The notes beneath the pieces are model-generated. The model was not told the DNA's origin and did not search any database. It was given only the letters and a program-made list of their open reading frames with translations. Of a DNA stretch of 64,000 nucleotides, positions 11,086 to 36,238 are shown in pieces. This DNA comes from a virus: the IMG/VR virus record IMGVR_UViG_3300029394_000152, one strand, 5' to 3'. Position 1 is the first letter of the stretch, and the number at the start of each line of letters is the position of its first letter. A program made the position numbers and the translations under genes.

Positions 11086-11163
11086 CCGGGTGTAGCGCAG
11101 TTTTGGTAGCGCGCTTGAATGGGGTTCAAGAGGCCGTGAGTTCGATTCTCGCCACTCGGACCA
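11086..11163 (+). tRNA. tRNA-Pro (GGG)
   Basis: cloverleaf with 7-bp acceptor, C1:G72 and A73 typical of bacterial tRNA-Pro, anticodon loop AUGGGGU, T-loop TTCGATT, encoded CCA. Confidence 0.8.
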
Positions 11164-27192: not shown

Positions 27193-27885
27193 ATGAGCAG
27201 AGGAATCCCAAGGGCAGTGTCTATGCATATGGCACAGAATGCCTTTGCCCGGTGCGCCGAAAAGGTAAACACCAGAAAGAACCTGACGCTGAACCGGCAG
27301 GCCGTTGGCGAGGTGGTGAGCTACTGCACCATGATCGCCGCCAATGACACGCTAGATTTCAACCGGGACAAGCAGGAGCGGCTTTGCACGGAAATGAACC
27401 ACCGGGCAGAGGTATACACGGTTGAAATGAGCGCATATGGGCAGCCGAAAGCCCGCGAGAAGCTGAGAGAGCGCACAGCACCAATGCTGGATAAGCCGTT
27501 TGTCCTCCCGGCAGGACAATACCCGCGCAAACAGCGTGAAAAAGACGCGCTGGCCGAACGGCGTGCCGCTGGTGATCTCGTGATCCGGTTCTTCATCGAA
27601 GCGCTGGATTCTATGGGCTATGATCGTGCCCAGATCAACAGCACCGTGGAAGAAGCCAGAAAAAACTATGAACAGTTCCTCGAATGGGCAAAAGACGGGG
27701 AGTATGTGGCGTATACCAAACTGGGCCGGTGTGTCCGCCCAGATGACCGGCGGCAGTACGGAGGTTGCGCGTGTGCCCGGTGCAGGGCCTATCTTCTCGA
27801 CAGAATTTTGACGGTACGGAGCGTAGGAGGGCAAAATGCAGGCAGAAGAAACGAAAATGATTTTGCGCTACTTTGGCGGGATTGA
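27193..27885 (+). CDS. hypothetical protein
   Basis: 230-aa ORF. Confidence 0.45.
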   Translation: MSRGIPRAVSMHMAQNAFARCAEKVNTRKNLTLNRQAVGEVVSYCTMIAANDTLDFNRDKQERLCTEMNHRAEVYTVEMSAYGQPKAREKLRERTAPMLDKPFVLPAGQYPRKQREKDALAERRAAGDLVIRFFIEALDSMGYDRAQINSTVEEARKNYEQFLEWAKDGEYVAYTKLGRCVRPDDRRQYGGCACARCRAYLLDRILTVRSVGGQNAGRRNENDFALLWRD

Positions 27886-28336
27886 AGCGCAACTTGATGA
27901 TGTCAACATTGAGCTGGCAGAACTGCGAGACCGCTACAATCCCATCAAGGGCATTGCTATGGACGGTATGCCGCACGGCAGCACGCCGGGAGATAGTACC
28001 GCGTCGCTGGCTGTGAAACTGGCCGATGATGTGGAGTGCCAGCGCCGGGAAAATGAACTTCGTGTTCGGCAGGATGTTCTCCGTGCAGATCAGACAACAA
28101 TCCGGGGGCAATTAGACCGGCTGAACAGTCGTTACAAAACGATCCTGTGCGGGCGGTATGTCTACAGTGATCCGTCGTTACAAAAAGGCTGGAAAACCAT
28201 AGCCCGCGAACTGAGAAAAACAGAGATCACAGCCCAGCGGTGGGAAAAGTTCGCGCTGGTCGTTCTGGGTTCCATGCTGGATGAAGTCCCGATGGTCGAA
28301 GAACTGCTCTCACGCGCGTATGACGCGCGCGATTAA
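27836..28336 (+). CDS. hypothetical protein (possible late-gene regulator)
   Basis: 166-aa helical protein immediately upstream of the accessory and packaging region. Confidence 0.35.
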   Translation: MQAEETKMILRYFGGIEAQLDDVNIELAELRDRYNPIKGIAMDGMPHGSTPGDSTASLAVKLADDVECQRRENELRVRQDVLRADQTTIRGQLDRLNSRYKTILCGRYVYSDPSLQKGWKTIARELRKTEITAQRWEKFALVVLGSMLDEVPMVEELLSRAYDARD

Positions 28337-28584: not shown

Positions 28585-28842
28585 TTATGGTTCGTTTTTC
28601 TTGATGATGATTTTCGGAACAGTGGGCGGTTCGCCGTGCTGCTTCATGTACTCGGCGATTTCGTTCGGCAGGCCAACAGGAAAGCCGTTTTCGTCCAGCG
28701 GCCCGTCATACCCGGAAAAATCCACAACATGAACCGTGGGCGGTTCCTGCAGGGTGTCGCAATACTGGCCGTCCTCATAGTTTACATCCGTGACACGGTT
28801 CCAATAGCCAATGTCGCCGTGCTCGGTCTGGGCGGCTTCCAT
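28585..28842 (-). CDS. hypothetical protein (cassette array member)
   Basis: 85 aa; last gene of the minus-strand array. Confidence 0.4.
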   Translation of the reverse strand: MEAAQTEHGDIGYWNRVTDVNYEDGQYCDTLQEPPTVHVVDFSGYDGPLDENGFPVGLPNEIAEYMKQHGEPPTVPKIIIKKNEP

Positions 28843-29065
28843 TGCGGCGTGGGCCTGTTCCTCGGTCAGTCCGTCGAACGTGGCGCGTGTGCCGTCGGCA
28901 AAACTGGCAACCAGACGCCAAGGTGCAAAAAATTCGACTTCGTTCGTAAAAATGCCCCCTTTTTTGCAAATTCGTTGCTGGAATTGAACTTTTCGTGCTT
29001 GAAAAGTCCAATTTCGTTAGTGAAAGTATATCACAAGATGCCCCGGCATGGAACCGGGGCACGCG

Positions 29066-29383
29066 TCATTCTTGTTCCTCTAAGCGCTTGCGAAAGGCTT
29101 TGCTCACGGTGTCGTACTGCTTGTTCAGAACATCGTTGCCGTGGTCGTACTCGCTTGCCCACGAAAGCAGCTTGTCGGACAGACACCGGCAGGCAGCCGC
29201 CATGCAGGCGCAATATTCGTTGTGGGTGTTGGGCAAGGGAAAGCTGCGCAGGATGTACATTTCATCGAAAACGGTATGCCGGACTTCAATGCGCCCGTTC
29301 CAGATCGTTATGTTGACAGTGGCTAAGTGGCGGCAGGAAGTGACCCTGTGCAGGACTGAGAGAAAGCGTTCGTTGGTTGTCAT
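29066..29383 (-). CDS. hypothetical protein (cassette array member)
   Basis: conserved leader cacgaaaaggagcaacgaacc before the ATG. Confidence 0.45.
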   Translation of the reverse strand: MTTNERFLSVLHRVTSCRHLATVNITIWNGRIEVRHTVFDEMYILRSFPLPNTHNEYCACMAAACRCLSDKLLSWASEYDHGNDVLNKQYDTVSKAFRKRLEEQE

Positions 29384-29414
29384 GGTTCGTTGCTCCTTTT
29401 CGTGGTGGTGATGT

Positions 29415-29603
29415 TCAGCGTGCCGGGCGGCGCTGGAAGATAAAGCCGGGGTTGTGCTCGGTCATCCATGCAACGGCATAGTCGGCTTGCTCCTTGAGGA
29501 AGCGCGGCGCGTATACCTTGCCCATGCCGCGGGTGCCTTTCCATGGATTGCAAAGCGTGAAGCGCTTTTCGTTGGGGCCTTTGCAGTAAATGAAGTAGTA
29601 CAT
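29415..29603 (-). CDS. hypothetical small protein (cassette array member)
   Basis: 62 aa from the MYYFIY start; leader cacgaaaggacgaaacga. Confidence 0.4.
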   Translation of the reverse strand: MYYFIYCKGPNEKRFTLCNPWKGTRGMGKVYAPRFLKEQADYAVAWMTEHNPGFIFQRRPAR

Positions 29604-29706
29604 TCGTTTCGTCCTTTCGTGATTCACCCCGGCGGGGCAGTGGATCGGCATTCAACCGACTACAAAATGAAGTCAATTCTCCTATTTTCCCCGGCGGAGC
29701 GGTCTG

Positions 29707-29964
29707 TTAGCAGATGCTTTGCGCAATTTCGTGCAGCGTCTTTTCCTGATCCCGGAGATAACGCGCATTGTCGGCGGCGTGGATGAACTTTGGGGAACCG
29801 TCCTCGTTCGTTTCAAGGGCCAGCCTTTCCCACGCTTCAATTTCACCGTTGCGGTACTTCGTGGAAGTGAGAAGGTAGAAATACAGGGTGTTCCACTGGT
29901 CAGCGGTGAGGGTGACGGTGCGCAGACCGCCGCCGGATTCGGTGCTTTGCTGTTTGGCTGTCAT
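29707..29964 (-). CDS. hypothetical protein (cassette array member)
   Basis: leader cacgaaaacgaaaaggagc. Confidence 0.45.
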   Translation of the reverse strand: MTAKQQSTESGGGLRTVTLTADQWNTLYFYLLTSTKYRNGEIEAWERLALETNEDGSPKFIHAADNARYLRDQEKTLHEIAQSIC

Positions 29965-30070
29965 GGTTCATAGCTCCTTTTCGTTTTCGTGATGTTCCCG
30001 ACATTTATGCCGGGAAGATGGGGCGGGGCCGCTTTGAATCGGTGCGGCCCTGCTGGGGTGTCCGCTTTTA

Positions 30071-30991
30071 TTATTCGTTTTCGTTGCCGTCCAGAAACTC
30101 CATGACACGGTGCGCTGCATATTTGGCGTTTGCGGTAAGCTGGCGCTGCCAAGCGCCCTGACTGGGTGCCCACCGGAAACCGTTCTCTTTGAGCATGGCG
30201 CGGGTTTCGTCGTCCGGCTTTCCGGGAAAGATGAATTGCACGCGCATGATTTCGTTGTTCTCACGGTAGGTGTAGCCGTCGTGCTGATCTTCAACGGGGC
30301 CGGATGCAGCGGAGGCTTGCGCTTTGTCGAGTTCGTCAAGGCGGGTCTGAATCCGCTTGATCTTGCCGCGGATACTGGTCAACTCAAAATCGTCGTAGGG
30401 CTTGCGGTACAGGCTCATTGAAAAGGCGTCCGGGCTGGTGAGGGCATCGGCTGCCGCGTCGCTCATGTTGGAATAGCCGCGCAAGGTTTTGTGCTTCCGG
30501 TAATAGGCATTGGCACCCTTGCAGTATTCGAGCAGGTCTTGCTCTTTGTTCAGCTGATCCGTGAGCAGTTCGCGGGCGTGGGGGTCGGCCAGATCAACGG
30601 GGCCGGTGCCAACCGCCTTGATTTTCGTCAAGATGGCTTCGATTTCTTCATATTCGTGCCAAAGCGTATCCTCGCGGGCGTTCTGCTTCTGCTTCTTTCG
30701 CACCGGGAAGTTACCAGCACCGCACACCAGCACAGAGGGGCAGCTTGCACCGTTCCGGTTGTGGTCGTCCGTCCACTGTGCAAGGCGGCGGGCGTAGCTG
30801 TCAAGCAGCGCGTCCAGCTTTTCGTGATAGTATGGGCTGACTTTCTGCTTCTTTTCTTCGACCAGAGCGGCGGCATTGTCCACGCTGGCACGGTATTCTC
30901 TGGTTGCATAGCCGTCCGGATAGGTGCTCATGCTGCGCATATTGTGGGAAGCACGGGCCAGATTTTCGTTGATGGGATAGTATGTTGTCAT
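30071..30991 (-). CDS. hypothetical protein (cassette array member)
   Basis: 306 aa from the MTTYYPINEN start; leader cacgaaacgcgaaaaggagc; GC-rich hairpin abuts the stop. Confidence 0.5.
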   Translation of the reverse strand: MTTYYPINENLARASHNMRSMSTYPDGYATREYRASVDNAAALVEEKKQKVSPYYHEKLDALLDSYARRLAQWTDDHNRNGASCPSVLVCGAGNFPVRKKQKQNAREDTLWHEYEEIEAILTKIKAVGTGPVDLADPHARELLTDQLNKEQDLLEYCKGANAYYRKHKTLRGYSNMSDAAADALTSPDAFSMSLYRKPYDDFELTSIRGKIKRIQTRLDELDKAQASAASGPVEDQHDGYTYRENNEIMRVQFIFPGKPDDETRAMLKENGFRWAPSQGAWQRQLTANAKYAAHRVMEFLDGNENE

Positions 30992-31083
30992 AATTCGTTT
31001 GCTCCTTTTCGCGTTTCGTGTTGTGCCTTTCGGCTGGGATCGGGTCGCTTTACGGTGCGGCCCGTCAAGGTATCCGGCGCGGA

Positions 31084-31569
31084 TCAGATGCACCACGGCG
31101 CGGCGTTGTATGCTGCATTCTGCTGGGCGGCGAATGCGTACAAGTGGTTTGAAGTCTTTACAAGCGCTTTCTGTAAATTCGTGTCTGCCGTGGCCTGTTC
31201 TTCGCACTGGTAAATGTAGCAGTCAAGCAGCTTCAGGAATTTGAAGAAATCAGCATCGAGAAAATAATGCTCGTTGTAGTCCAGACGGTGCAGCAGGTGC
31301 GGCACATTGTCCGGAATGGCTGGCACTTCGTCGGTTTCGTCCGGCTCTGCCTTATAGCGCCCTTCATACGCGGCTTCGTTGTGCCGGTACAGAACGGGGT
31401 AGATTCGACGGTCGTCATACAGAAAATCGTGCGGGTATTTGCAAGCGCCCAGAGCGTCGCGCAATTCGTCGGCGGCGGAAAGCTGGCACATTTCGGATTG
31501 ATTGAGCAGGTACGACAGACCGTGCGCAACGGTGGCGATGTGGGCGGGGGAAAGCATCATGCAAGACAT
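31084..31569 (-). CDS. hypothetical protein (cassette array member)
   Basis: 161 aa; AGGAGG RBS. Confidence 0.45.
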   Translation of the reverse strand: MSCMMLSPAHIATVAHGLSYLLNQSEMCQLSAADELRDALGACKYPHDFLYDDRRIYPVLYRHNEAAYEGRYKAEPDETDEVPAIPDNVPHLLHRLDYNEHYFLDADFFKFLKLLDCYIYQCEEQATADTNLQKALVKTSNHLYAFAAQQNAAYNAAPWCI

Positions 31570-31689
31570 AAATTCAAGCCTCCTGTTTTCGTTTTTCGTG
31601 TTTCGTGACGATCCCCCGGCGGGGTGCCGGTGGGAAGTGGGGCGGGGCCGCTTTGAACGGTGCGGCCCTGCTGGGGTCTCCGTTTCGTG

Positions 31690-32631
31690 TTATGCAAAGC
31701 AAAGCTGCTGCACGGTGGGAACCATTTCGGGGGTCTTTGCCTTTTCCAGATTGTCAAGGGCCATTACAAACGCGGCGGCTTCGCGGTCGCTGCTGATAAG
31801 GTCGCCCATGTATTTATTGAACTTCTGGACGGTGGCGGCAAACTGGGAATCGTTGGCGCTCATTTCGTCGAACTTGTCCACGGCGTCGTAAAACTCGCCG
31901 CTCTCGTGGTCGTCGTCGGTCTGGTACAGGCGGGAATAGTTCTTGACGAAAGCGTTTTTCAGTTCTTCCATGTCCGGCCCGGTGGGTTTCGTTTCGGCTT
32001 TCTTTGCCGGGGCCTTTTTGGCGGTGCGCTTCGTGGCCTTTTTCGTGGGCAGCGGATCGACGTGCACCAGTTCCGGCAACTCGTGGTGTTCTTCGGTGAT
32101 GATCGGGGCGGTGGCTTCGGCCTTTGCCTTTTCGGCGGCGGCTTTCGCTGCTTTCCGTTCGGCTGCCAGCTTCTTGTTATACTCGATGATTGCAGCGGTC
32201 GATCCAAACCGGCCAGCCGGGGCGGGCTTGCTGCTTTCAACCTGTAAGCAACTGAACAGGTGCGATTTCGTGGGGTAGTAATGCGGATCGGGGGCCGCTT
32301 CCTTGCCCTCTGCCGCTGCTTTTTCTCGCTGCTCTTTGCTGGGCTTCGTGGTGTACTTCCAGAGGTAGCAGCAAACAAGATGCTTTTCACCCTTTTTGAC
32401 GCTCTTACCCTCTTTCTTCCAGTGGTCGAATGTGTGCAGCTCGTCGGCTGCAAGCATGATTTCGACATCGGCCACGGTGGCGGGCTGTTCGTTGCCGTTC
32501 TCGTCGGTGGTTTTGCAAGCGGCGGCAATGGCGGCGATCTCGTCCGGGGTGTGGTGCGCGGTGGCGATGGCGTGCAGGGTGGCAGGGTCAAGCCGGGCGG
32601 CTTCGTTGCGGATGATCTGATTGTTCGTCAT
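31690..32631 (-). CDS. ArdC-N (DUF1738)-like ssDNA-binding domain protein
   Basis: motif LHTFDHWKKEGKSVKKGEKHLV resembles the ArdC_N TF.QW..G..V.KGEKG signature; Ala/Lys-rich linker and a C-terminal domain. Confidence 0.35.
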   Translation of the reverse strand: MTNNQIIRNEAARLDPATLHAIATAHHTPDEIAAIAAACKTTDENGNEQPATVADVEIMLAADELHTFDHWKKEGKSVKKGEKHLVCCYLWKYTTKPSKEQREKAAAEGKEAAPDPHYYPTKSHLFSCLQVESSKPAPAGRFGSTAAIIEYNKKLAAERKAAKAAAEKAKAEATAPIITEEHHELPELVHVDPLPTKKATKRTAKKAPAKKAETKPTGPDMEELKNAFVKNYSRLYQTDDDHESGEFYDAVDKFDEMSANDSQFAATVQKFNKYMGDLISSDREAAAFVMALDNLEKAKTPEMVPTVQQLCFA

Positions 32632-32735
32632 GGTAAATACTTCCTTTCAATTTTTGTTGTGGTTCTTCCCGGCGGGGCCGGGTGGATGGGATCGGGTCGC
32701 TTTTCGGTGCGGCCCGTCAAGGTATCCGGCGGGGA

Positions 32736-32948
32736 TCATGCGAGAAGTTCAGCGGCGGCGGTTTGATAGTCGGGAAACTCGTAGAACGTGCGCTGTTCGT
32801 CGTTCGTGTTCTCGTTCGTGATGCGGGCGACGATCCGCCGCCCCGTGTTCATGTCCCACCCCTCAAGCCGGAACCCGGCGGACAACAGGCGGCGGGCGGC
32901 GTGGTTTTCGTTGCGGCATTCGTTGCGGATTTCTTCAAGGGTTTTCAT
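32736..32948 (-). CDS. hypothetical small protein (cassette array member)
   Basis: 70 aa; AAAGGAG RBS. Confidence 0.4.
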   Translation of the reverse strand: MKTLEEIRNECRNENHAARRLLSAGFRLEGWDMNTGRRIVARITNENTNDEQRTFYEFPDYQTAAAELLA

Positions 32949-32966
32949 GTTGTGCGCTCCTTTCGT

Positions 32967-33308
32967 TCAATCGTCGATCCCGTCGCAATCGTGACAATAC
33001 AGGGCATCAATAACGCGGTCGTCGCTGAAGTCGTCCGGGGTTCCGTTAGCATCGACCACAAGATCGATCCGGTCATTGATCCGCAATTCGGTTTCGTTGT
33101 CCACGATGAAAAACCAGTCGTCACCGTCCAGCGCGTCACTGCACCAGACTTCAATCTGGTTTTCGTTGGTGGCGGTCATGCCTTGCACAATGGCCGGGGC
33201 GATATACCGCCCCAAAGGGCCGACTTTGTAGGGACAGGCGGCAGCGGCGCGGGGTGCGCCGGACAGCAGCGCGGCGGCAAGTGCGGCGGCGGTCAAAATT
33301 CGTTTCAT
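32967..33308 (-). CDS. secreted Asp-rich small protein (signal peptide)
   Basis: MKRILTAAALAAALLSGAPRAAAA signal sequence followed by a D-rich region. Confidence 0.45.
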   Translation of the reverse strand: MKRILTAAALAAALLSGAPRAAAACPYKVGPLGRYIAPAIVQGMTATNENQIEVWCSDALDGDDWFFIVDNETELRINDRIDLVVDANGTPDDFSDDRVIDALYCHDCDGIDD

Positions 33309-33426
33309 GGTTGTTTCTCCTTTTCGTTTCGTGGTGTGGCTTTTCGTGCTTTTCCCCGGCTATTGTCGGGGCGTGGGATCGGGTCGCTTTTCGTGGTGCG
33401 GCCCGTCAAGGTATCCGGGGCGGCGT

Positions 33427-33831
33427 TCATGCCGGAATGTTGTAAATCTCGTTGAAGATGTCCAGCGCGTCGAGATCGGCGGCTTTCTGTCGTGCTGCAT
33501 TCACCGCGCCGCGGTCGTCGTGGCCGTTGAAGTGGTACGCTTCAATAAAGGCGTTGCGGATCAGATCGGCGGTGTGCTGGTGCTCCTGCAGCGCTTCCCA
33601 TTCGGCCCGGTCACGGATCAAAATTGTACAAGTCCATGCGCAAGAGCTGAAAGCCTGCAGAACGTCAACGTGAAACGATTTGCACCGGTTCAGCGCGGCG
33701 GTGATTTGGTCGCGCTCCTTGCGATCCATCGGAACGATGGAATAGGCGGGAATGTACCAGCCAGAAACGGGGGAGATGTTCCACCCGTGCCGGGCGGCGA
33801 TCTGGTTTACTTTCTTGTCAAATGCGGTCAT
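33427..33831 (-). CDS. hypothetical protein (cassette array member)
   Basis: 134 aa from the MTAFDKK start; AAAGGAG RBS. Confidence 0.45.
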   Translation of the reverse strand: MTAFDKKVNQIAARHGWNISPVSGWYIPAYSIVPMDRKERDQITAALNRCKSFHVDVLQAFSSCAWTCTILIRDRAEWEALQEHQHTADLIRNAFIEAYHFNGHDDRGAVNAARQKAADLDALDIFNEIYNIPA

Positions 33832-34031
33832 GTTCTCGATCTCCTTTTGATTTTGGTTTTGACCCGGCGGAATGCCGGACCCCATGAGCGCCCGCCCCGT
33901 TTGGGGCGGCTGGACTTGCACCAGCGGCGGCGGATGCCGTCGGCCTTGCGGGGCGGGCTTGACTTCACTTCCTTTCGGTGGTAAAATCAGATTGCTTGAA
34001 AAAGTGCTTGTTCATGCGAACAAGTAGGCTG

Positions 34032-34139
34032 TCAACCGGTGGTGCGGTTGGCGGCTTTTTTCTTTGCCCATTCAGCCATGAGCGCGGCCCAAACGGCACG
34101 CTTGACGGCTTTCGGCAGCTCGAAAAAGTGTTTATTCAT
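34032..34139 (-). CDS. hypothetical 35-aa peptide (first gene of the array)
   Basis: AAAGGAGAA RBS; the MNKHFF start motif is repeated 130 nt downstream. Confidence 0.25.
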   Translation of the reverse strand: MNKHFFELPKAVKRAVWAALMAEWAKKKAANRTTG

Positions 34140-34172
34140 GCGGCTTTTCTCCTTTCGGCTTATTCAGCTTGC

Positions 34173-34308
34173 AACCCTGTACCGTGTCGCTCGCTGTGGC
34201 ACTACTCTAGCACGGTACAGGGTTGATTGTCAAGCCCTATACCGTGCTTTCTGCGTTTTGCACAAAACCCTATACCGTGCTTTGTGCAAATTGACACTGT
34301 ACAGGGTT
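34173..34308. promoter_or_regulatory. operator cluster: five 14-bp CCCT(G/A)TACCGTG sites in direct and inverted orientation
   Basis: AACCCTGTACCGTG, CACGGTACAGGGTT, AGCCCTATACCGTG, AACCCTATACCGTG and CACTGTACAGGGTT between the divergent array and the RHH gene. Confidence 0.55.
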
Positions 34309-34356
34309 GGGCGAAAATGCTATATTTTATATATAAAAATAAACAGGGGTAATATT

Positions 34357-34602
34357 ATGGCTGTATCAGCAAGAAAAAGACTGAATAACGACAAATACAA
34401 CGCAAAATGCACGCAAATAAACCTGAAACCGTTGACACCGGAAGCAAATGCAATAAAAGCCGCGGCAAAAGCGTCTGGGCAAAGCATACAGGGATATATT
34501 TTACAGGCCGTGCGGGAACGTATGGCAAAAGAGGGCCAGCCGTTGACGCTGGACGACTTGCCGGGGGCTGATTCCGTGGGCGGCGATTCCGTGAAACCGT
34601 GA
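34357..34602 (+). CDS. ribbon-helix-helix (CopG/Arc-like) regulator
   Basis: 81 aa; the TQINLKPLTPEANAIKAAAKASGQSIQGYILQAV region suggests an RHH beta-strand/helix signature. Confidence 0.5.
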   Translation: MAVSARKRLNNDKYNAKCTQINLKPLTPEANAIKAAAKASGQSIQGYILQAVRERMAKEGQPLTLDDLPGADSVGGDSVKP

Positions 34603-34789
34603 AAAGCGGGGAAGAAGGGGGACTATAGGGGGTTACTGGGGCGGCATATAGCCTAGTTAACCCTTACCACTGCAGCGATATGCCGTTAAGTGAAGAATCT
34701 GACCCCTTCGGCAAACAGCAAAAACAGCCCTGCACCGGGGCGACAACAGCAGCAGAAAAGGCCGGGACGACCGACGCACAACGCGCCGC

Positions 34790-35215
34790 CGCCCCGGCCT
34801 TTTTTCTTTTTGCCCGCTATGCCGGGCCGCTCACACTGCACCGCCTGCAGCAGCCAGCGCCCGCCGCGCACCGGCTGCACCGGGCATTCCGCCGCCGCCC
34901 TGCCTGCTGCATACCATGCCAGCGCCGCCCGCCTGCCCTATGCCAGCATACAGCAGACCGCCGCGCCCTACTGCACCGCCTGCACACTGCCAGCCATGCA
35001 GCAGCCAGCACCGCCCGCCGCCTTGCCGCGCCTGCCAGATCGCCGCCGCGCCCGGCCTGCTTTGGGGCGGATCGCTGGCCCGCTGGCCCCGCCCGCCTGC
35101 CGGATCGCCGCCGCGCTGGCGCTGCCCGGCCCGCCGCGCCGCCTCTTGCAATGACCCCGCGCCCGCCGCCCGGCGCCGGGCCGATGACCACGGCCCGCCC
35201 GCCCCGCGCCCGTAG
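34790..35215. repeat. about 78% GC low-complexity repeat-rich non-coding tract upstream of terS (candidate pac/cos region)
   Basis: GCCGCC/CCGCC-rich; repeated caccgcctgca...cagcagccagc blocks about 130 bp apart; only mutually overlapping spurious ORFs. Confidence 0.4.
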
Positions 35216-35476
35216 GTACTGGGAGCGGCGTTTCAATCCTTTACGGGTCCGAAAGCCCGAAAATTTTCTAGGTATAAACGGATTTTTGCCCTTCCCCAGA
35301 AGGGGGTCTGAAAAAATTTAGGGGGATTTTTTGAAGAAAATTTTCAAAATGATGTATCGTGATGCCTTTTTCCTGCTATAATCGGTACAGTGATAGGTGC
35401 GAAGCTCCATGACATTCCGTCGTGGGGCTTTTTCTTTTGCGTGTATTTTGGAAACGGGGTGCAGGAGTGATGCCGG

Positions 35477-36238
35477 ATGCCGAAGCGGAACGACAAGCGC
35501 GACACCGCCAAGGCTGAGTACATCAAGCGGCGGCGGTCGGGCGAGAAAGTAAATCTCAAAGACCTTGCCGAAAAACTGGGCGTGACATACGGCACCGTCC
35601 GCAACTGGAAACGCATTGACCAATGGGACGATGCGGTGGAGCGCAAGCGCGGGGGACAGCCCGGAAACAAAAACAGCCGGGGCAAGAGGAATGCCAAGGG
35701 CAATCCCGGCGGCGGTGCGCCGAACGGAAACACCAACGCAGAGAAGGACGGTGCATATAGCACGGTTCACCTTGAACGTTTGAGCCAAGAGGAACGGGAC
35801 TGGCTGGATCAAATGCCGACCGGTGCAAACGAGAACAACATTTATGAGTTGAAGCTGCTTCGGATTCAGCAGCGGCACATCATGGAACGGATCGCAGAGT
35901 ATGAAAGCTGCGACCCGGAAAAGCTGTTCACTGCATCCATCACCGATATGCGAAAACCGGGAAAGGACAAAGACGGGAAGCAGGCGGACGGAGCTGTGCA
36001 GAAGATGGTCATGGATAACAAGGACAGTGCCTTTGTTCGAGTGACCCAGCTGCGGGAGGCCCTGAACAAGGTCTCCGGCAGAATTATTTCCCTGACCACA
36101 CAAATCCGTCAGCAGGAAGAATTTGAAAAACGGTACGCTCTGGAACTGGAACGCCTTGACATTGCAAAGATGCGGGCGACCGGTGAGGTGGATGTAGACC
36201 CGGAGGGAGGGACAGAGGATGAAACTGTACACGACTAA
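35477..36238 (+). CDS. terminase small subunit
   Basis: N-terminal HTH LKDLAEKLGVTYGTVRNWK and coiled-coil C-terminus; sits upstream of terL. Confidence 0.7.
   Translation: MPKRNDKRDTAKAEYIKRRRSGEKVNLKDLAEKLGVTYGTVRNWKRIDQWDDAVERKRGGQPGNKNSRGKRNAKGNPGGGAPNGNTNAEKDGAYSTVHLERLSQEERDWLDQMPTGANENNIYELKLLRIQQRHIMERIAEYESCDPEKLFTASITDMRKPGKDKDGKQADGAVQKMVMDNKDSAFVRVTQLREALNKVSGRIISLTTQIRQQEEFEKRYALELERLDIAKMRATGEVDVDPEGGTEDETVHD

Follow-up and report, generated by a model that had tools for sequence, protein, structure and literature searches.

Five repeats around two predicted promoters as probable operators of an Arc-like ribbon-helix-helix protein at the head of a ribozyme-punctuated phage gene array

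The 64-kb stretch of viral DNA analysed here (IMG/VR record IMGVR_UViG_3300029394_000152; 64,000 nucleotides, hereafter the window) is a Faecalibacterium prophage that was integrated beside a tRNA-Pro gene (11086-11163) by a large serine recombinase, and whose region of interest shares about 95% identity with phage FP_Toutatis and has phage Lelie as a further relative. Within 136 bp of it (34173-34308), a short sequence is repeated five times between two divergent transcription units: on the plus strand, the gene for an 81-residue Arc-like ribbon-helix-helix (RHH) protein, and on the minus strand an array of genes, a polycistronic block (28585-33956) in which the genes are split by self-cleaving ribozyme motifs, a point missed by the initial annotation of this DNA. 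That annotation took the repeats for operators through which the adjacent RHH protein controls the array and probably its own gene. The Arc-like profile and predicted fold of the protein, the overlap of the repeats with predicted promoters, the co-variation of repeat and protein across related loci, the repeat clusters found at array promoters and the exclusion of the small terminase support this reading, and on such sequence evidence we put the probability that the five repeats are operators for the RHH protein at roughly 0.8. The control region contains the following features, given in window coordinates.

34173-34186, plus strand: site S1, AACCCTGTACCGTG, in the 5' untranslated region of the array transcript, spanning roughly +11 to +24 relative to the predicted start, where the other specificity classes described below have a site too.
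34204-34233, minus strand: predicted array promoter, with a -35 TTGACA (34233-34228), an 18-nucleotide spacer and an extended -10 TGcTAGAGT (34212-34204; TAGAGT at 34209-34204).
34211-34224, minus strand: site S2, which occupies the -35/-10 spacer of the array promoter and supplies, with its final two bases (34212-34211, minus strand), the TG of the extended -10.
34233-34246, plus strand: site S3, AGCCCTATACCGTG, which touches the upstream edge of the array promoter -35.
34257-34266 and 34281-34290, no strand assigned: class-independent inverted elements TTTGCACAAA and TTTGTGCAAA, which flank S4 (inverted pair I11: 10 nucleotides, 100%).
34266-34279, plus strand: site S4, AACCCTATACCGTG, in the interval that separates the two promoters, at roughly -55 to -65 relative to the predicted start of RHH transcription.
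34295-34308, minus strand: site S5, with one mismatch; it reads CACTGTACAGGGTT on the plus strand and includes the -35-like hexamer TGTACA of the RHH promoter.
34298-34326, plus strand: predicted RHH promoter, with a -35 TGTACA (34298-34303, within S5), a 17-nucleotide spacer and an extended -10 TGcTATATT (34318-34326; TATATT at 34321-34326).
34357-34602, plus strand: gene for the 81-residue Arc-like RHH protein, an open reading frame with a plausible ribosome-binding site.

All five repeats lie where the initial annotation had placed them, and its consensus fits four of the copies, while the fifth departs from it by a G-to-T change. Exact copies of CCCTRTACCGTG occur at 34175-34186 (plus strand), 34211-34222 (minus), 34235-34246 (plus) and 34268-34279 (plus); the fifth copy, CCCTGTACAGTG at 34295-34306 (minus), has a single mismatch to it, and this G-to-T change is conserved in the related loci of the same T-Q-I-N class. 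When up to one mismatch is allowed, these five are the only matches to CCCTRTACCGTG in the window, as compared with 0.24 +/- 0.47 expected from shuffled sequence (0 of 100 shuffles gave five). The repeat unit is longer than this core, at about 14-15 bp, (C)AACCCTRTACCGTG (direct repeat families D2 and D7; inverted pairs I2 and I3). Three copies are direct and two inverted, and they are spaced 36, 24, 33 and 27 bp from centre to centre.

S1 and S2 together form a perfect 15-bp inverted repeat (I3: 15 nucleotides, 100% complementary, 24 nucleotides apart), which, with the TTTGCACAAA arms around S4 (I11), raises the alternative that the repeats serve as nucleic-acid structure or as recombination sequences in which no protein takes part; the variation of array cargo between loci likewise suggests recombination nearby. 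However, three of the five copies are direct repeats, and S2-S5 would not be present in RNA because they lie upstream of the predicted transcription starts. As the sequence itself is, moreover, conserved within each class and shifts in concert with the recognition residues of the protein, we consider a protein-free function of the repeats very unlikely.

The array promoter is predicted to be a near-consensus promoter of the sigma-70 type, as is the back-to-back RHH promoter, for which TTGACA at 34291-34296 offers an alternative -35. A consensus promoter scan of 1.8 kb returned four promoter-like sites where 0.9 were expected. Among 30 distinct combinations of RHH protein and operator from related loci, the array -35 is exactly TTGACA in 22, its spacer is 17-18 nucleotides long and its -10 has the form TAnnnT; most classes have TATAAT or TATATT as the RHH -10, and the RHH -35, located within the fifth site, varies with the operator class. 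The repeats thus overlap the -35 and -10 elements of a target promoter next to a regulator gene, as in the immI region of phage P22, S2 lying in the spacer, S3 next to the -35 and S5 across the regulator's own -35. Such positions are typical of repression by steric exclusion, and the operator-in-spacer layout represented by S2 is kept across classes, including loci in which the RHH gene and the array are co-directional.

The open reading frame at 34357-34602, which the initial annotation had called a CopG/Arc-like RHH gene, is borne out as RHH-like by both sequence profile and predicted fold. An AlphaFold monomer model (mean predicted local distance difference test score 79, and above 90 for residues 21-60) consists of an N-terminal helix (residues 5-17), a strand (18-26), two helices (27-39 and 44-59) and a disordered tail, and therefore contains the strand-helix-helix core of about 45 residues by which the RHH superfamily is recognised. 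In a Foldseek search, Arc chains rank first (target TM-scores 0.76-0.92, root-mean-square deviation of about 1-2.7 A, about 30% identity), followed by CopA, TacA, AmrZ, AtaR, ParG, NikA and CopG; the Arc structures matched in this analysis are 1PAR, 1MYL and 1BDV. Among the 113 homologues found, three have a precomputed match to PF03869 (Arc), and in searches with a profile of 73 homologues P22 Arc is the best solved relative (E 0.001-0.005 for Arc variants, 0.2 for wild-type Arc). This profile aligns C18-T-Q-I-N-L-K24 in register with M7-P-Q9-F-N11-L-R13 of Arc. The family corresponds to PHROG 13890, of unknown function, and several sources label its homologues DUF1778. We regard the assignment of the RHH fold as sound and membership of the curated Arc family as marginal; if it behaves as RHH proteins do, it would dimerise through an antiparallel two-stranded sheet and bind DNA in a sequence-specific manner.

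Several RHH proteins are antitoxins, some of which appear in the fold list, and the weak Pfam similarity to TacA and ParD together with the DUF1778 name of the homologues would fit an antitoxin of a type II toxin-antitoxin system (TacA, ParD or CopA-like), with the repeats as its autoregulatory operator. The RHH gene stands alone, however: it has no partner gene downstream, and no toxin-sized open reading frame precedes or follows it. On its 3' side, GC-rich non-coding DNA extends for about 0.85 kb up to the terminase genes, and such a GC-rich non-coding gap of 0.6-0.9 kb before the small terminase gene is present in the window and in most relatives. Since Arc also outranks every antitoxin in both sequence and fold searches, and since three sites out of five belong to the divergent array promoter, an antitoxin function is highly improbable.

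To relate site to protein, we used 122 loci encoding RHH relatives, drawn from viral contigs and bacterial genomes and nearly all from Oscillospiraceae and relatives. Sites were extracted by de novo repeat finding; anchoring on the GTCAA of the third site worked for close classes only and was dropped. Three to five repeats lie upstream of the RHH gene at near-fixed positions, around -183, -147, -123, -90 and -63 from its ATG, and across groups their sequence tracks six residues of the beta-strand (hereafter the key), in at least 16 pairings, among which are the following.

Key TQIN[LI]K (window): site CCCTGTACCGTG.
Key DRITVW: site CACGTTGCGGTG.
Key DYIS[LI]R: site CNCTGTTGCGTG, also written C(A/C)CTGTTGCGTG.
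Key DAITIR: site CACGTTGACGTG.
Key DRIVIQ: site CACGTTGCCGTG.
Key DFIAIK: site CACGTTAACGTG.
Key DYINIR: site GCACGGTTGAAT.
Key DTIQIR: site GCACTCATGAGTGC.
Key DSIQIR: site CATGACGGAATG.
Key ATKSIR (phage Lelie): site GCATGAATCATGC.

The window motif is found exactly in 28 of 28 T-Q-I-N-[LI]-K loci and in 0 of 97 others, and in the exact-match tables the motifs of other classes are likewise restricted to their own key. These tables replaced a pairwise comparison in which 41 of 56 same-key and 94 of 764 different-key pairs of motifs were similar at 9 or more of 12 positions, too permissive a threshold given that the flanks C-N-C and G-T-G are common to many classes; the central 6 bp of the 12-bp site are the variable part. 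The residues that co-vary with the repeats, over at least 16 classes, are those aligned to Gln9, Asn11 and Arg13 of Arc, as would be anticipated if alternate side chains of the RHH beta-strand determined specificity, of which this is an indirect test.

Two comparisons separate the sites from their surroundings. Locus L012 shares the C-terminal half of the RHH protein with the window, and 76-78% of its non-site intergenic columns are identical to those of the window, as against only 42-50% of its site columns; the identical set of 6 of the 12 positions is altered in all five sites, the inverted one included. Conversely, distant loci with the same key as the window keep the sites better than the framework (0.90 versus 0.71 in L020; 0.65 versus 0.51 in L084). 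This double dissociation, taken with the occurrence of the pairing in two locus architectures, argues that the co-variation is more than linkage.

The second architecture emerged when ribozymes were sought in the 117 loci with at least 1.5 kb of upstream sequence, using covariance models and hidden Markov models built from the ribozyme hits. Twister-sister or RAGATH-5 elements lie only on the strand divergent from the RHH gene in 70 of these loci and only on the RHH strand in 32, while 15 have none; the RHH family therefore heads or tails a ribozyme-punctuated gene array in 102 of 117 loci of gut Oscillospiraceae phages and prophages. Ribozyme elements downstream of the RHH gene were seen at one locus only, and related loci carry up to seven ribozymes, pistol included. 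At least three sites stand beside the RHH gene in 68 of the 70 divergent loci but in only one of the 32 co-directional loci. In four of the latter whose array head is within range (L065, L090, L106 and L088), a trio of the motif is instead found 2.9-4.0 kb upstream, where it surrounds a promoter with TTGACA and an extended -10, one copy lying in the spacer, and is followed by ribozymes; the same motif also occurs at about -63 of the RHH gene in L065, L090 and L106, but not in L088. L106, whose key is D-Y-I-N-V-R, uses GCACGGTTGAAT, as do the divergent D-Y-I-N-I-R loci. From the counts of 68 of 70 versus 1 of 32 and from the distant trios, we conclude that the cluster is a feature of the array promoter and that it matches whichever RHH protein the locus encodes, even when the gene for it is distant.

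These results bear on the possibility that the repeats are operators for some other DNA-binding protein, of the host or encoded elsewhere in the phage, and that the RHH gene co-varies with them merely as part of the same recombining block. Linkage of this kind does exist in divergent loci, where the sites and the N-terminal codons of the RHH gene fall within about 350 bp and are inherited together, and the hybrid site sets of L100 and L085 also fit such a block. Yet the divergence within it is concentrated in the sites and the beta-strand rather than spread evenly, in co-directional loci the RHH-specific motif occurs at a distance of 2.9-4.0 kb from the gene, beyond several cargo genes, and the co-varying residues align to base-contacting positions of Arc. 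Nor is the site repeated anywhere else in the window, as it might be if it served a wider regulon. Another protein as the ligand is thus unlikely in our estimation. The small terminase, for which the repeats might have been a cosB or pac site, can be excluded as the binding protein, since it is nearly identical between two phages that differ in all five sites: the terminases of the window and L012 differ at one residue in the 60-residue N-terminal stretch compared.

The position of the cluster relative to the ends of the virion genome has also to be considered. The cohesive ends of phage Lelie carry 5' overhangs, and the predicted cohesive-end (cos) site is where its record begins (PMC11792537). 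When aligned with the window, the two termini of the cos-oriented Lelie genome meet exactly at 35245|35246, about 0.94 kb from S5, and this junction is likely to be the cohesive-end site of the prophage. As the Lelie ends map there, the RHH gene and the array promoter would lie within about 1.1 kb of the right end of the virion genome, with the array transcribed inward.

This proximity of about 1 kb, the AT-rich stretch after S5 and the use of RHH proteins as centromere-binding and relaxosome accessory proteins (ParG and NikA are in the fold list) would be compatible with a protein that binds the sites mainly for a purpose other than repression, in a packaging accessory or cosB-like complex, at a centromere or at an iteron-type origin. 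The AT-rich stretch, however, represents the -10 and leader of the RHH gene, both conserved, the sites fall exactly on the conserved -35, spacer and -10 of two promoters, and in co-directional loci the trio stands at the array promoter, several kilobases from the side on which the RHH gene and cos lie. An iteron-type origin was rejected, there being no adjacent initiator gene and the sites being locked to -35 and -10 elements in all classes. A role in plasmid partition or replication was rejected as well: the neighbours are the small open reading frame and the ribozyme array on one side and cos and the terminase genes on the other, the prophage was integrated by a serine recombinase, and neither ParA or Rep domains nor ParA-like, Rep or relaxase genes were found among the scanned neighbouring proteins, of which the 34-residue open reading frame, 29418-29651 and 28588-28842 were not run against every library. 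We therefore judge a principal role in packaging, segregation or replication improbable.

Several points weigh against the assignment of the repeats to the RHH protein as operators, or limit how far it can be taken. The window protein falls short of the curated Pfam cut-offs (18.5 versus 27 for NikA-like, 16.9 versus 21 for TacA and 17.2 versus 27.3 for ParD) and has no NCBIfam match, and in the literature searched we found no binding, transcription-start or repression data for this phage group. The related loci are phylogenetically non-independent samples, and because the operator and the RHH N-terminus are adjacent in divergent loci, part of the co-variation could be hitch-hiking. In the co-directional loci with keys DYISLR, DYISIR and DYISVR (L035-L042, L075, L098 and L112-L117), the 4 kb fetched contained no CTGTTGCGTG, the heads of these arrays probably lying beyond. 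L100 and L085 combine DTIQIR-type sites (GCACTCATGAGTGC) at the array promoter with DYIS-type, CACTGTTGCGTG-like sites at the RHH promoter, which points to recombination inside the control region; these hybrid operators lie about 200 bp upstream of the RHH gene. Finally, the initial annotation had envisaged cooperative binding, but the site spacings, although conserved, are not helically phased, and no Mnt-type tetramerisation or other oligomerisation domain is visible in the AlphaFold model; for these two reasons cooperativity is left without support, if also without refutation. The geometry of the promoters can account for the conserved spacings.

If the repeats are operators for the RHH protein, its dimers on S1-S3 would block the strong array promoter and keep the array off. 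Exclusion of RNA polymerase would be expected, since S3 abuts the -35, S2 fills the spacer and includes the TG of the extended -10, and S1 lies just past the start. The leftward promoter would drive a polycistronic operon of the small open reading frame, the twister-sister ribozyme and then the genes separated by RAGATH-5 elements, whereas the rightward promoter would drive the RHH gene alone. Binding to S5, with S4, would limit the synthesis of the protein itself, as S5 holds the -35 of the regulator and S4 lies just upstream; it is from this position of the sites that we infer negative autoregulation. Gln20, Asn22 and Lys24, the counterparts of Gln9, Asn11 and Arg13 of Arc, would recognise the six variable base pairs at the centre of each 12-bp site. 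Contacts to the flanks C-N-C and G-T-G may come from conserved regions of the protein, the N-terminal helix for instance. Observed here are the repeats, the predicted fold, the promoter-like elements with their conservation, the co-variation and the ribozyme setting, whereas binding itself, repression rather than activation, the occupation of each site by one dimer and any cooperativity are presumed.

The closest parallel is the immI region of P22, in which the RHH repressors Arc and Mnt control Pant. Arc is the top match in both sequence-profile and fold searches, and its recognition residues Gln9-x-Asn11-x-Arg13 correspond to Q-x-N-x-K here. In both systems a small repressor gene lies beside a strong promoter with operator sequence over the promoter core, regulator and target are divergent (as are mnt and Pant) with autoregulation presumed, and the module is found among late or accessory genes instead of in the main lysogeny switch. 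Loci of the co-directional kind, with the RHH gene on the array strand, recall arc-ant. Unlike immI, with its single operator of 17-21 bp bound by a tetramer, the window has five separate sites of 12-14 bp spread over 136 bp; the protein has an extra N-terminal helix and, in the model, no Mnt-type tetramerisation domain; and the target is a ribozyme-punctuated operon in whose cargo neither an Ant-like nor any other known domain was found, rather than the antirepressor gene ant.

Plasmid RHH regulators such as omega, ParG and CopG act at iterated short sites in direct and inverted orientation, an arrangement also found here. The resemblance extends to omega of pSM19035 and to MetJ with its met boxes, where RHH dimers bind short sequences repeated several times, direct and inverted, over promoters, and where number and arrangement vary. 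Omega heptads and met boxes, however, are contiguous units of 7-8 bp that are bound cooperatively side by side, whereas the sites described here are 12-14 bp long and lie 10-22 bp apart, and the context is that of a phage with no partition or copy-control genes present. In its proposed logic the module is also similar to the Aca autorepressors, in that a very strong early accessory promoter would be held by a small repressor of the same locus through operators over the promoter core. Characterised Aca proteins are mostly helix-turn-helix proteins, and no recognised anti-defence cargo is present here, the sole hint being a sub-threshold match to ArdC-N (E 9e-4).

A small repressor acting over promoter elements is a textbook mechanism, and the interest lies in what is controlled. 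Passages of PMC4604425 and PMC6765202 that cite Weinberg et al. 2015 describe twister-sister, pistol and RAGATH motifs as clustering with each other and with phage genes, and the loci analysed here agree, twister-sister, pistol and RAGATH-5 being clustered with phage genes in them too. The role of these ribozymes in bacteria and phages is stated to be unknown, the processing of polycistronic transcripts being only suggested (PMC6765202). In the literature searched, we found no dedicated regulator or operator described at the head of ribozyme arrays, no paper that joins ribbon-helix-helix proteins with self-cleaving ribozymes and none that names RAGATH-5; a hotspot preprint that mentions Toutatis is silent on this locus.

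By analogy with Arc and Mnt of P22 and with DNA entry in phage lambda, entry into a repressor-free cell might produce a burst of transcription from the strong array promoter that is then shut off, with silence in the lysogen. The array and its promoter would occupy the last 1-7 kb before the right cohesive end, and if, as in lambda, the right end enters first, the operon would fire on entry from its near-consensus promoter and be shut off by newly made RHH protein. The RHH/operator module might then act as a second immunity system of the immI kind, setting the timing of an accessory operon that is injected first and processed by ribozymes, a suggestion that we offer tentatively and with the odds against it. 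Were it correct, a resident prophage would silence the array of a superinfecting relative of the same specificity, which would explain why repressor and operator have diversified into at least 16 specificities while the promoter scaffold is conserved, and the module would give a first genetic handle on the roles of twister-sister, pistol and RAGATH-5 ribozymes in phages.

The locus is of moderate interest for its conserved link with ribozyme-punctuated phage operons and for its many matched specificity variants. A defined promoter, operator and repressor would make the role of the ribozyme array addressable by ordinary genetics, and at least 16 matched pairs of beta-strand and operator on one scaffold should be useful for deriving rules of RHH recognition and for designing orthogonal repressors.

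The array itself, in which an Rfam search placed one twister-sister and five RAGATH-5 elements between genes, all above the gathering score, has the following features.

34040-34144, minus strand: first array gene, a small open reading frame of 34 residues, MNKHFFELPKAVKRAVWAALMAEWAKKKAANRTTG, annotated in FP_Toutatis.
33994-34018, minus strand: truncated second start of the small open reading frame (MNKHFF...), with a 16-codon open reading frame at 34016-33966; absent from FP_Toutatis and present in L012.
33875-33956, minus strand: twister-sister ribozyme, the first ribozyme of the operon (77.4 bits; gathering score 34).
33367-33418, 32680-32729, 31631-31683, 31028-31077 and 30012-30065, minus strand: five RAGATH-5 elements (Rfam).
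30012-33418, minus strand: array body, with genes of unknown function between the RAGATH-5 elements; the array runs on to about 28.6 kb.

A permissive Rfam scan of 33850-35500 returned the twister-sister ribozyme and otherwise sub-threshold noise (mir-276, COG2908 and ctRNA terminator-like hits). The duplication of the MNKHFF start noted in the initial annotation proved to be real, as a 25-nucleotide direct repeat (33994-34018 and 34118-34142; 88% identical; D3) of which both copies read ATG-AAx-AAx-CAC-TTT-TTC on the minus strand. Small open reading frames of the same peptide family, xxFFxLPxxxKxxIWAAxLAEWxKK, are present in several specificity classes. Matches of the array cargo comprise PHROGs of unknown function, a PHROG labelled 'primase', a weak anti-restriction PHROG (E 0.005) and the ArdC-N hit mentioned above; beyond that hit and the 'primase' label, Pfam, PHROGs and NCBIfam yielded no informative family for the cargo, and an anti-defence role of the array therefore stays speculation.

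The first gene past the operator varies between otherwise similar loci, being the small open reading frame, a signal-peptide protein or others, and its start is fixed at about -218 to -233 from the RHH ATG despite the differing gene. The array thus behaves as a cargo hot spot with conserved junctions. Within it, a 44-nucleotide repeat (29373-29416 and 29954-29997; 86% identical) spans the ribosome-binding site and start of two genes. Just before the far end of the array lies a plus-strand gene (27836-28336) that is called 'antiterminator Q' in the FP_Toutatis annotation but for which neither Pfam nor NCBIfam gives a match; the insertion that separates it from the terminase genes consists of the array, in reverse orientation, the RHH gene and cos. 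On the other side, the 0.85-kb non-coding stretch, in which many viral contigs break, contains GC-rich degenerate direct repeats (D2, D3) at 34830-35130.

In contrast to the sites, the elements TTTGCACAAA and TTTGTGCAAA are conserved in nearly all specificity classes, and a TTTGTGCAA-like element, similar to TTTGCACAAA, is also found upstream of the array promoter in co-directional loci. These could be an UP-like element or the site of a second factor. TTTGCACAAA is not enriched elsewhere in the window (10 matches versus 6.75 expected), and for this reason no regulon or factor can be assigned to it.

A candidate small RNA of about 70 nucleotides (33993-34066, plus strand), antisense to the 3' end of the small open reading frame, comprises two stem-loops and a U-run (minimum free energy -32.3 kcal/mol, z -5.4) and is preceded by a promoter-like TTGACT-17-TGgTAAAAT (33959-33987, plus strand). 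This promoter and the terminator hairpin are kept in Toutatis, Lelie, L016, L081 and L089, where the stem sequences differ and are still self-complementary. As stem-loop 1 in the window holds the duplicated MNKHFF start region, the candidate RNA could pair with the start site of the small open reading frame.

At one related locus (L110, 3174-3935), an array of clustered regularly interspaced short palindromic repeats (CRISPR; 28-nucleotide repeat GTGTTCCCCGCGTGAGCGGGGGTGATCC, period 61) abuts an S5-type operator and RHH promoter. Either a CRISPR locus here adjoins what is left of a prophage, or the assembly is a chimera created via a spacer with a match to this region of the phage.

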